Assembly: GCA_050304135.1 (NCBI GenBank)
Contig: JBNLDC010000063.1
Location: forward strand, 12,176 to 76,175
DNA from: Chitinispirillaceae bacterium
Lineage (GTDB): Bacteria; Fibrobacterota; Chitinivibrionia; Chitinivibrionales; Chitinispirillaceae
DNA: 64,000 nt
Direction of reading: 5' to 3'
The notes under the pieces are model-generated. The model saw nothing but the letters and a program-made list of their open reading frames with translations. It was not told where the DNA came from and searched no databases. Position numbers and translations under genes: made by a program. Shown piece by piece: positions 25,598 to 33,727 of this stretch. The number at the start of each line of letters is the position of its first letter. Positions within the stretch are counted from its first letter, which is position 1.

Positions 25598-25628
25598 AAG
25601 AACGGTAACCGGATCAATTACCGTTCTT
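25598..25628 (-). terminator. stem-loop overlapping the stop codon of the giant ATPase gene; candidate operon terminator
   Basis: AAGAACGGTAA-CCGGATCAA-TTACCGTTCTT: 11-bp stem followed on the minus strand by an A/U-rich tract. Confidence 0.4.
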
Positions 25629-28600
25629 CGCCCAACAGGTCCTGCTCACTGAGTCCTCCGGTACCCTGTTTGTTCTTCTTACGCTCCGCCAGAAACCTTT
25701 TAATCAGCTCCCTTTGCAGCCACATGGCCCGGTTGACGGCGATTTGAAGCTTCTCCACATTGGCCGACTCCTGCAGGGTCGTATTCGAAATCGGTTCCAG
25801 CCAGCCTTTCATAATCTCCATCTGACTTTGCAGAAGGGATACAATATCATTCTGATACGACTGCGGAGAATCTACCGGTTTCCTATCGTTACTGCCACTG
25901 TTTCCGGCCAGTGCGTTCTCCATATGTGCAATCGCCTTTAACAGAAAATCCTGGGTGGCGGGACTAAGGTCAAGACGGCCGAAATCAGTACCCGCATTTC
26001 TTTTCTCCCGCACCTTATGATGCGTATTGGATTGTTTGATTCCTTCATCAAGGGCATGACGTATACTCTCGAGGCCATCGGAAAAATTACTGAGTTGCAG
26101 TACCACCTGACCGATTTTATCGTCCTGACCGACTAGGCGGTTTTTGCCGAAAGTCTTCTTTATATTGTTCCAGCGAACCTGTTCATCCGGCGTCAGGTAG
26201 CCGTTGAGTTCTCTGAATTTGAGCAGGTTGGCCTCGGCACCGCTCGTAAGCGTCTGCGCATCATTCTCGTAACTTCCCAGAATTATACTGGTCAGCTCTT
26301 TGCTGTTCATAACTGCAAGGACTTTTTCCGCAATCCGGTTCATATTGCGATACGACCCCTGGAGTTTGAACGCAGGTTCAGTACGATACGCGTCAGCAAT
26401 TGCCGCAGAACGGATATATTCCATATTGACCCTGAGAATAATATCGCGCACCTCAACGAGCTTCTGCAGCACCGCCACAATTTCATTGAGTTCCTCTGCA
26501 CTGTAGGTACTTTCCAGATCGAGACCATCACGTGAACCGGTCTGTGCCACAGCAACCAGCTGATAAATATCTTTACGACTCCGGGAAGAGAGGCGATTGA
26601 GGACCGGATTTGAGGTCATCGCATTTTCGATGTAGCTGAGTTTGAATGCCTCCTCGTTCTGCCTGAGCATATCGCCGAGATTATAGGTGTCGGCACGGTT
26701 TGCCAGCATATCGGGTATTTTGAATTTTTCCCCGCTTTCGGTATAGGGATTTCCCGCCATAACCACCACAACCTTTTTTCCGCGAAGATCATAGGTTCGG
26801 GAAATGCCGTTGTATACCCCCTCAATTTTTCGTTGCGCATCACACAACGATATGAACTTCTGCAGAAACTCCGGATTGCAGTGCTGGATGTCATCAATGT
26901 AAATCATCACATTATTGCCCATCTCAAAAGAAAGATTGAGCTTTTTAAGTTCCTCCCGGGCACCGGCATTCGGGGCATCATCGGGGTCGATGGAGGTTAC
27001 CCCGTGGCCGATTGCCGGACCATTCACCTTCATGAAAATGATACCGAGCCGGTTGGCGATATACTCCATAAGGGTGGTTTTACCATATCCCGGTGGAGAA
27101 ATCAGCAGAAGCATCCCCATAAGATCCGTCCGTTTTTTTTCACCAACAACCCCTATCTGCTTCGCAAGATTGTCGCCAATCAGGGGCAGATACACTTTGT
27201 CAATCAGTTGATTGCGCACAAAGGAGGTCAGCACACGGGGTTTGAACTCTTCAAGACGGAGTGTGGTTCTGAAGGCATCGGTCAGTTCTTTTTTGAGTTT
27301 TCGGAAGGCATCGAACTGTGGGAGTGTATCCCGGATGAACCCTTCGATTTTTTCCGAAAACCCGATATAATCAAACCGACAGGTTCCTTTTTCAATTACA
27401 GGGTGATCACCCAGAAGTCCTTCAAGATGTACCGAAACGGGAGTGGAAACCACCTGGCGGGGGTGATACGAATCGGTGAGGAGGAGTGCAGCGGCCTCCT
27501 CCGGAAATAAACCGCTCCCCTGACTGCCGGTTTCTTCGCAGTAGGCGGCAATCCAGTCGTGTACCAGATCGTACCGTGCCACCAGATTGTCTGCAAGTGC
27601 CGCAAGGGAATTACCCCATCGTTCCTCCGCCTTTTTCTCTTTAAGCAACGCCTTGAAACCCTTGACAAGAGCTTCGGCTTCGGCACTGATCACGAACTGT
27701 TCACCCCGGCGGATTTCTTCACAGAGGTACCGTGAAGCCCGTGATATATCAGCCCCGCCGAAACGTCCCAACGATGCTCTGAACGTTTCAATCGCCGGCG
27801 CAGTCAGTGCCGCGTAATGCTCCATGCGCTCGGTCGCGTTGAAAACCGCGTATACCTCATTGAGTCCCGACAGCCTTGCTCTGAGCAGTTCCTTGTGTCC
27901 GGCATCGTCGCAGTACTGCCAGTATATCCGTGCAAGCGCCCGTTCTTCCGGCCGGAAAATCAGCAGACCGAGTGACTCATGAAGCTGCAGCAGCGTACGG
28001 AGCAGGATTGCGGCGTCATGATCGTGTACCCCTTTCACATATCCTTCCTGATATCGGGGGGCCATAAATTGCTGTACTAGGGGAGTCAGTTCATCAACGC
28101 TCTGTGCGGCAAGAGTTGCAACCGGTTCTATCTGGCCCTCGATCGATGCCTTCAGCATGGTGTACGCCAGATATTCCGAGCGGTATACCACGCCGTTTTC
28201 CGAAGGGAGTTCCTGTTCCCACACCTGACGCAGGTCTTTCAGCCGTGCATCCTGTACGGGGTGCATGAAATCAGTTCCGGTGAGGTGGTAGAACATCTCG
28301 TCATCTTTGCGGACGATCGTCAGATCAAGCGGCTGCGTGTTAACGGAGAAGTTATGCTCCCCCATCCGGATAACATCCTTGCCCCCGACAAACAACTCAT
28401 TTTTATCTTTGAGCTGTCTGACCGCGTCCTCACGAATGGTCTTAAAACGACTCTGGAGATCATCGGCTTTCACCGGATCACCCAGGGAGAACAGTTCCTC
28501 TATGATGTCACGGACTTTACCTGCCATCAGATCAGATGCGAAATATCCGTTGATTTCATTAATATCAGTAAAGGTTTTAAGCCGGTTGGCAATACCTTTG

Positions 28601-33040: not shown

Positions 33041-33727
33041 TTATGCCTCCCAGTCATTAAAAGGTTCAACGATATAGAAATTTTTCTCTTTGTCTTTTTC
33101 GATAACAAGCGCAGTCTGTCCTTTACTCATTGAACAGCCTGGTCGCGTTTTCACATTAATGATCAACGGAGCGCCCTCTGTTTTCACCTCGCCCTGACCA
33201 AGGCGGTCGGGGGACAGATCACCGAGCAGACGGCAGATCTCTCCGACCGTTTTACGGGTGGACAGGTCTTTACTTTTTTTAAGCAGCCCCTTGAGTGGGG
33301 CAGTTATGAATTTAGTCGCAAAGAGTGTAATAACCACATTGGCGGAAATAATACCAAGGGCAATAACCGTCGGCAGATTTCCACCGGCAAGGTAGGTACA
33401 CGACACCGTACCGAGCCAGGTGAGCAATACCCAGATACTTAAAAAAAGCATCAGCGGCATATCCGCAAGATTGAAAAATATCAGCGCCGCATGAAAAGGG
33501 CCCCCACCAATGTCCCCTCCCGCATCACCGACGTCTACATCGGTGTCAGGCGATACATCGAGATCCAGATTCAAGAAATCAAGATCAACCGCACCGGCAA
33601 TGACCGAAATCCAGTACAGACAGATAACCGCCAGAAGCATCGAAGGCAGAACATTCGGTCCTGCTATCGCAATGTGCCATAACTCTGCCATGGTTACTCC
33701 CTGATCGTTAAGTAACAGAAACCACAA
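33041..33727 (-). CDS. NfeD/YqiJ-like membrane protein (flotillin partner) with a C-terminal OB-fold-like segment
   Basis: 228 aa. Multi-TM N-terminal half, an acidic loop (DVDVGDAGGDIGGG), and a C-terminal beta-rich segment (GQGEVKTEGAPLIINV…GQTALVIE). Its stop sits directly at the flotillin start. Confidence 0.6.
   Translation of the reverse strand: MWFLLLNDQGVTMAELWHIAIAGPNVLPSMLLAVICLYWISVIAGAVDLDFLNLDLDVSPDTDVDVGDAGGDIGGGPFHAALIFFNLADMPLMLFLSIWVLLTWLGTVSCTYLAGGNLPTVIALGIISANVVITLFATKFITAPLKGLLKKSKDLSTRKTVGEICRLLGDLSPDRLGQGEVKTEGAPLIINVKTRPGCSMSKGQTALVIEKDKEKNFYIVEPFNDWEA

Follow-up and report, generated by a model that had tools for sequence, protein, structure and literature searches.

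Scaffolds built from SPFH proteins repeatedly partner with AAA+ machines, as in HflK/C-FtsH and the prohibitin-m-AAA protease pair, and polymers of the ESCRT-III/PspA type are remodelled by AAA+ ATPases such as Vps4. How flotillin microdomains are assembled, sized and disassembled is an unresolved problem in bacteria and in eukaryotes, no energy-consuming factor being known, and to our knowledge no ATP-dependent flotillin assembly or disassembly factor has been described in any organism. The closest described system is an operon reported by Ravi et al. (2024, mSystems, PMC11237479; bioRxiv 2020), which encodes in order a CesT/Tir protein, PspA, a YqiJ/YuaF protein, a Band-7/flotillin protein and an ATPase made up of a β-propeller, a coiled coil and an AAA+ domain. 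That study proposed a role in sub-membrane assembly and dynamics, drew the analogy to ESCRT, and mentioned in one sentence an "abbreviated" form without PspA. Here we analyze a three-gene operon on a 64,000-nucleotide stretch (the window) of contig JBNLDC010000063.1 from a Chitinispirillaceae bacterium (GenBank assembly GCA_050304135.1). It encodes a YqiJ/NfeD-like membrane protein, a flotillin and a 1774-amino-acid (aa) ATPase, and it is the abbreviated form of the described operon. Thus, the operon is already in the literature on computational grounds, and the original prediction, which was made from the DNA letters alone and proposed an undescribed system, was overtaken on this point by Ravi et al. 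2024 (PMC11237479), where both the operon and its PspA-less form appear. Our literature search found no experimental study of the ATPase or of the operon.

A conserved three-gene unit

The three genes lie on the minus strand. Gene 1 encodes the small YqiJ/NfeD-like membrane protein (33041..33691, 216 aa from an ATG at 33691), gene 2 the YqiK-type flotillin (30962..33040, 692 aa), and gene 3 the soluble ATPase (25618..30942, 1774 aa). The TAA stop codon of gene 1 (33043-33041) directly abuts the ATG of gene 2 (33040) with 0 nucleotides between them, and the ATG of gene 3 (30942) follows gene 2 after a 19-nucleotide spacer that contains GGAGGGG. The tight packing put forward in the original prediction was therefore borne out. 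Junctions this short (0 and 19 nucleotides) could not hold separate promoters, so the three genes are likely co-transcribed, and the TAA/ATG contact together with the short spacer points to translational coupling. The open reading frame (ORF) of gene 1 can also be counted from a TTG at 33727 (33727..33041, 228 aa). The ATG at 33691 is the more likely start; it is preceded by AGGGAG, and the same start is called in assembly GCA_050303235.1.

To identify the first two proteins, we built family alignments from homologous loci (45 sequences for the 692-aa family, A2; 42 for the 216-aa family, A3) and compared their profiles by hhalign with Escherichia coli proteins drawn from NC_000913.3. Searched singly against Pfam, the window products of genes 1 and 2 gave no match at E <= 0.1; the SPFH (Band-7) model goes undetected in the window flotillin itself, and its homology emerges only through the family profile and its relatives. 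The 692-aa family matched E. coli YqiK (probability 100%, E = 2.4e-42, 407 columns), and the 216-aa family matched E. coli YqiJ (probability 96.6%, E = 6.4e-10). Band_7 was matched in 5 of the 45 flotillin family members (best E = 3.3e-13), the family also matches the SPFH protein QmcA, and the window flotillin itself matched NCBIfam FloT at E = 0.0016. For gene 1, hydropathy predicts about three transmembrane segments and a C-terminal soluble domain. The family profile touches the C-terminal NfeD-type domain of Bacillus subtilis YuaF (PDB 2K14), weakly, at E = 0.04, and YqiJ_N is a weak Pfam match in gene 1 homologues. At the level of sequence profiles, these comparisons confirm a YqiJ/NfeD-like protein and a YqiK-type flotillin, the labels that the two genes had been given at the outset despite the lack of a Pfam match. 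Along the flotillin, an N-terminal membrane anchor (residues 1-36) is followed by an SPFH/Band-7 domain (about 50-200), a long Ala/Glu/Lys-rich (AEKQR-rich) coiled coil (about 200-550) and a conserved C-terminal domain.

We then asked how consistently the three genes occur together. More than 5000 database proteins belong to the ATPase family at E <= 1e-10, and across phyla they are 52-61% identical to the window ATPase over their full length. Scanning genomes with the ATPase gave 80 loci, spread over Planctomycetota, Desulfobacterota, Bacteroidota, Verrucomicrobiota, Bacillota, Kiritimatiellota and Fibrobacterota, and neighbour counts were made over 84 genome loci. Among the 63 genome loci with at least 2.4 kb of upstream DNA, 60 have a flotillin gene upstream on the same strand. 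In the reciprocal direction, a metagenome scan with the flotillin returned 80 loci, and the ATPase gene lies downstream of the flotillin gene in all 60 that have at least 1.5 kb of downstream DNA. The YqiJ-like gene precedes the flotillin gene in 51 of 61 loci by tblastn; by hidden Markov model (HMM) it was found in 55 of the 80 genome loci, many of the others being incomplete contigs. The trio spans at least ten phyla and is also found on the Pseudomonas fluorescens plasmid pQBR103, a Streptomyces linear plasmid and a Deinococcus megaplasmid. Since the flanking genes vary by lineage, only the trio is conserved, and the recurrence of this arrangement in many phyla is far beyond chance. In short, the flotillin and ATPase genes are adjacent in about 95-100% of testable loci, with the YqiJ-like gene in most. 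Homologues without a flotillin neighbour would have spoken against the proposed tie between the ATPase and the flotillin/NfeD pair, and they are few (3 of 63); in the reciprocal scan, this flotillin subfamily lacked a downstream ATPase gene in 0 of 60 loci. These data support the view that the three genes are one conserved unit in which the ATPase has a functional tie to the flotillin/NfeD pair.

Two variations on this arrangement were observed. The gap between the flotillin and ATPase genes exceeds 300 nucleotides in 26 of 60 loci and then holds unrelated small genes: DUF559-like, GxxExxY-like, IS200/REP-transposase-like and toxin-antitoxin-like genes and small lipoproteins (for example L009 5609-6695, L047 4835-6735, L053 6365-6814, L061 6389-6942 and L028 6521-6943, and also other Bacteroidota and Verrucomicrobiota loci). 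The junction appears to tolerate or attract insertions while the gene order is kept. We considered these genes as a fourth component and rejected them as unrelated, variable insertions. In addition, four Verrucomicrobiota loci of Pedosphaera/Limisphaerales-like origin (L068, L070, L072 and L050) encode a divergent flotillin (735-810 aa, 36-42% identity) ahead of the ATPase, and in front of this flotillin no YqiJ-like gene could be detected. These may represent a two-gene variant of the module; for L070 the upstream DNA amounts to only about 340 nucleotides.

A gene for PspA (PspA_IM30, E = 9e-41) lies near the trio in 20 of the 84 genome loci, all of them Bacteroidota, and in 32 of the 80 from metagenomes; 18 of the former and 26 of the latter also encode a CesT_Tir_1 protein (PF22550, E = 1e-56). 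Most Bacteroidota PspA loci have the order divergent HTH_3 regulator (minus strand), CesT_Tir_1, PspA_IM30 and trio, and the Dokdonia donghaensis example in Table S3 of Ravi et al. 2024 (ANH61663.1; PMC11237479) corresponds gene for gene to these loci. On pQBR103, a megaplasmid of strain SBW25, the trio closes a cluster of genes on one strand (NC_009444.1 84437-97641; L166 977-14181) in which it is preceded by genes for YjfI, PspA, a rhomboid protease, DUF2491, DUF350 and DUF1190 proteins and glutathionylspermidine synthase. This is a second PspA context, unlike the Bacteroidota one, and it unites two operon classes that are kept separate in Ravi et al. 2024 (PMC11237479).

The window operon shares with the operon of Ravi et al. 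the same three proteins in the same order and on the same strand: a YqiJ/YuaF-type protein with three transmembrane segments, a flotillin, and an AAA+ protein with an N-terminal helical region, all adjacent. In contrast to the full form, the CesT/Tir-PspA dyad is not directly upstream of the window trio, and the divergent HTH-protease regulator is missing as well. Neither PspA nor CesT/Tir was found anywhere in the 64-kb window by tblastn or HMM, and thus the window holds the abbreviated form. Weak tblastn matches from four PspA queries at about 47.9-48.0 kb (minus strand) were rejected as chance, because a lipoprotein-like ORF occupies the opposite strand and the PspA HMM gives no match there. 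Taken together, it is very probable that the module is a PspA-less form of the conserved YqiJ/NfeD-flotillin-AAA+ operon and belongs to the wider Psp family of membrane-stress and membrane-dynamics systems.

Domain organization of the large ATPase

The ATPase has no transmembrane segment by hydropathy. Its N-terminal 1250 or so residues, in which the original prediction recognized no motif, contain two Pfam domains: DUF3686 at residues 39-477 (29512..30828, minus strand; E = 2e-187) and DUF7902 at residues 599-682 (28897-29148, minus strand; E = 1e-26). Among AAA models the best match was the generic AAA family (PF00004; residues 1278-1398, E = 2e-7). AAA_5 fell just under its cut-off (21.8 bits versus 22), and AAA_3 gave no match in the protein. 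We modelled the protein with AlphaFold2 as two halves, each from a 36-sequence alignment, and obtained mean predicted local distance difference test (pLDDT) scores of 82.7 for the N-terminal half and 76.7 for the C-terminal half.

In the N-terminal model, DUF3686 consists of a helix (residues 23-55) that leads into a β-rich domain (61-412; pLDDT mostly 85-93), whose roughly 27 strands fall into seven groups of about four. This predicted strand pattern is consistent with the β-propeller of the literature. DUF3686 was always N-terminal among complete-length matches (about 1,600-1,930 aa) when 1.84 billion cluster representatives were searched; the many shorter matches to the large protein look like contig-end fragments. 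Downstream of the β-domain, the model predicts an all-helical rod that resembles tandem spectrin repeats and contains DUF7902 (residues ~429-845; 28408..29658, minus strand). It is followed by a small β-domain (857-895) and a helical domain, together covering residues ~857-1230 (27253..28374, minus strand), which form the least conserved part of the ordered protein. A fold search with the C-terminal half gave no strong match outside the AAA+ module. The C-terminal tail (residues ~1640-1774; 25621..26025, minus strand) is variable and mostly helical, with low-confidence prediction (pLDDT below 50 in places) and conservation of 0.07-0.30.

The AAA+ module spans residues ~1245-1600 (26143..27210, minus strand), and in fold it comes nearest to NorQ and CbbQ, ATPases of the MoxR family. 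The Walker A motif is GYGKT (1285-1289, nucleotides 27076-27090), the Walker B acidic pair is at 1350-1351 (nucleotides 26890-26895), and a β-hairpin (1372-1385) lies just ahead of sensor-1 N1398. K1288, D1350/D1351, N1398 and R1416 are all invariant in the family, which argues that the protein is probably an active enzyme. The P-loop stretch looks more like p97 D1 than MoxR in sequence. The MoxR-type assignment of the original prediction therefore stands at the level of fold, where NorQ and CbbQ are closest, and fails at the level of family models, with AAA_5 below its cut-off and no match to AAA_3. Conservation is highest in the AAA+ module, which together with the β-domain forms the most conserved part of the protein. 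In this protein Pfam reported no protease, nuclease, toxin, pore-forming effector or other catalytic domain, and domain and fold searches found no DNA-binding domain.

Some homologues depart from this layout. Three (P0061, P0066 and P0068) carry extra TPR or ankyrin repeats N-terminal to DUF3686, which suggests additional partner-binding modules in certain lineages. In a Rubripirellula metagenome-assembled genome (MAG; L056 7001-12151), the ATPase gene reads as two ORFs (776 and 887 aa), which reflects a frameshift, a pseudogene or an assembly error.

Upstream region, gene 3 terminus and flanking genes

With the ATG at 33691 as the start of gene 1, the non-coding region between it and a divergent 136-aa ORF is 465 bp long (33692..34156), somewhat more than the 430 bp first proposed. 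This region presumably holds the promoter and regulatory sites of the operon. Scans found no promoter-like site in it on the operon strand, and a search for repeats or operators gave short two-copy matches only. A promoter and terminator scan over 25.3-34.3 kb was uninformative, with counts equal to the shuffled expectation; promoter-like matches within the three genes were likewise at chance level. Rfam gave sub-threshold noise only, both for the operon and for the region 5' to it.

At the other end, folding and reading of the sequence place a hairpin across the stop codon of gene 3 (approximately 25596..25631, minus strand; -20.8 kcal/mol, z = -2.3 versus shuffles), in agreement with the original prediction. 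This hairpin lacks a downstream U-tract and is thus not a canonical intrinsic terminator; nor was it picked up by the terminator scan.

The 136-aa ORF (34157-34567, plus strand) has no Pfam match, and beyond it lies a gene for a regulator with HTH_3 and Cupin_2 domains (34764-35411, plus strand). The divergent neighbour of the full operon in Bacteroidota is also an HTH_3 regulator, with a C-terminal domain other than that of the window protein. Further out, the window flanks consist of housekeeping genes (shikimate pathway, LeuCD-like, histidinol dehydrogenase, MetH). On the gene 3 side, a GGDEF diguanylate-cyclase gene adjoins the trio (24541-25467, minus strand), and GGDEF genes are also found beside the trio in a Vallitaleaceae MAG (L024, downstream) and in Deinococcus CP029777.1 (L168 4526-6007). 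Their presence in three unrelated lineages could be chance or a weak link to cyclic di-GMP signalling. We rejected the GGDEF gene as an operon member, since it was found in only 2 of the 84 genome loci and one Deinococcus plasmid locus and since in the window it is 150 nucleotides off, beyond the hairpin.

Proposed role and comparison with known systems

What does the trio do? Because PspA is linked to it in two independent contexts, a role in membrane stress or membrane remodelling, one of the functions raised in the original prediction, is most likely. Three observations bear on how such a role might be carried out: the domain identities of the proteins, their soluble or membrane location, and their tight gene linkage, which in two lineages includes PspA. 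Flotillin would be anchored through its N-terminal hydrophobic segment, and its SPFH domain and long coiled coil would build an oligomeric scaffold along the cytoplasmic side of the membrane. The YqiJ-like protein, co-translated with flotillin, would sit in the same membrane patch and use its C-terminal NfeD-type domain to touch flotillin. The conserved N-terminal β-domain would bring the soluble ATPase to this scaffold, the rod serving as an arm or spacer, and the MoxR-like AAA+ module, presumably a ring, would spend ATP on assembling, disassembling or reshaping the flotillin polymer. Where PspA is encoded, the ATPase would also act on PspA/ESCRT-III-type polymers. The analogues are Vps4 acting on ESCRT-III and the AAA+ partners of other SPFH cages. 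We infer the physical interaction, the ring, the substrate and the direction of remodelling from these analogies. We consider this explanation of the locus as a whole more likely than not, and we give somewhat less than an even chance to the specific mechanism in which the ATPase docks on the flotillin scaffold and its AAA+ module assembles, disassembles or reshapes the scaffold and PspA polymers. We advance more tentatively, as a doubtful extension, that the large DUF3686 ATPase is a dedicated ATP-driven remodeller of flotillin scaffolds and of co-encoded PspA/ESCRT-III-type polymers. It would be a bacterial functional counterpart of Vps4 or NSF for SPFH assemblies, docked by its β-domain on the flotillin cap and working by a non-threading, MoxR/midasin-like power stroke.

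Several of our findings weigh against this scheme. In three loci (L015, L035 and L063) the ATPase gene has no adjacent flotillin gene and is preceded by unrelated genes. YqiJ-YqiK occurs without this ATPase in E. coli and many other bacteria, and thus flotillin scaffolds do not generally need it. There is no PspA or CesT/Tir gene in the window, so any involvement of PspA there needs a gene elsewhere in the genome. Within the protein, the fold search gave no confirmation of a β-propeller for DUF3686, the AAA+ module has no aromatic pore-loop-1, and its Walker B motif reads DD instead of DE; the last two make classical substrate threading uncertain. Finally, MoxR-type ATPases normally work with VWA partners, and the trio has no conserved one. 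Flotillin and the YqiJ-like protein are the only phylum-wide neighbours over the 84 genome loci, and VWA is absent from the Bacteroidota PspA, CesT and HTH families and from the window neighbours, the rarer families not having been scanned singly.

The best-surviving alternative is that the flotillin/YqiJ scaffold is a platform on which the MoxR-like ATPase acts as a client-directed chaperone that inserts, matures or extracts client membrane proteins of the microdomain. This would parallel quality control by HflK/C-FtsH, minus the protease domain, and it agrees with an AAA+ fold nearest to the maturation chaperones NorQ and CbbQ in a protein that has no protease or other catalytic domain. The big β-domain and the rod would suit the binding of varied partners, and the TPR and ankyrin repeats of some homologues are typical protein-binding modules. 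However, no client gene is conserved beside the trio, no VWA adaptor is present, and the extreme conservation of the β-domain fits a single universal partner such as flotillin better. We consider this explanation rather unlikely.

The original prediction had also raised an anti-phage or abortive-infection function, in which the ATPase would sense infection and the membrane would be disrupted via the flotillin/NfeD pair. Defence systems often include large ATPases, the Psp proteins were originally noticed because phage induces them, and a few copies of the trio are on megaplasmids such as pQBR103. However, the best match in PADLOC-DB 2.0 was IetA, at a sub-significant E = 9e-4 over 30 P-loop residues, and the other two proteins had none. 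The N-terminal domain of the ATPase was found in 0 of 2.9 million viral contigs and 0 of 50,697 phage records, and in only 13 of 72,556 plasmid records. Biosynthetic housekeeping genes flank the operon in the window, the ATPase has no nuclease, toxin or pore-forming effector domain, and 50-60% identity across phyla with a single architecture is unlike rapidly diversifying defence genes. A defence role is thus very unlikely, and this part of the original prediction is not upheld. Least likely is a DNA repair ATPase that acts on DNA, with the flotillin neighbourhood incidental: it has the Pfam text for DUF3686 ("ATPase involved in DNA repair"), the NCBI homologue name and weak matches to the RuvB P-loop region in its favour, but RuvB models scored 20-25 bits against cut-offs of 282-299 and no DNA-binding domain was found. 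Family members are named "DNA repair ATPase" or "AAA family ATPase" in databases, and the former name on PF12458/DUF3686 proteins, having no support in domain content or gene context, is probably a propagated misannotation. This is a clear case of a misleading name on thousands of proteins.

The value of the window operon as a discovery is limited, as the operon type is already published and this copy is a minimal form in an ordinary housekeeping context. To the published description, which gives no structure, AAA+ clade or quantitative linkage for the ATPase (Ravi et al. 2024), we add the linkage figures, the placement of the AAA+ module closest to NorQ and CbbQ, the spectrin-like rod, pQBR103 as a second PspA context and the absence of defence or mobile-element signals. 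For the question of flotillin dynamics, the trio offers a concrete candidate: a soluble AAA+ protein of 1,600-1,900 residues that is dedicated to one flotillin subfamily and often found in PspA operons.

Compared with other known systems, the first two genes are homologous to yqiJ-yqiK of E. coli and yuaF-floT (nfeD2-floT) of B. subtilis and have the same arrangement, whereas an ATPase gene is not part of those operons. At 692 aa, the window flotillin is longer than YqiK (553 aa), and it belongs to a subfamily with the large ATPase gene downstream in all 60 testable loci. The ATPase shares its AAA+ fold with the MoxR family (NorQ, CbbQ and RavA), with NorQ and CbbQ closest, and is also comparable to the AAA_5 motors (midasin and dynein), but it does not match the MoxR sequence models (AAA_3, AAA_5) above threshold. 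MoxR proteins have about 250-350 aa and pair with VWA proteins, whereas the window ATPase has 1774 aa, with about 1240 aa of N-terminal domains, and stands beside a flotillin and a YqiJ-like protein. With the SPFH cages and their AAA+ partners, and with ESCRT-III/PspA and Vps4, the trio shares a common theme: a membrane scaffold polymer and a dedicated AAA+ protein.

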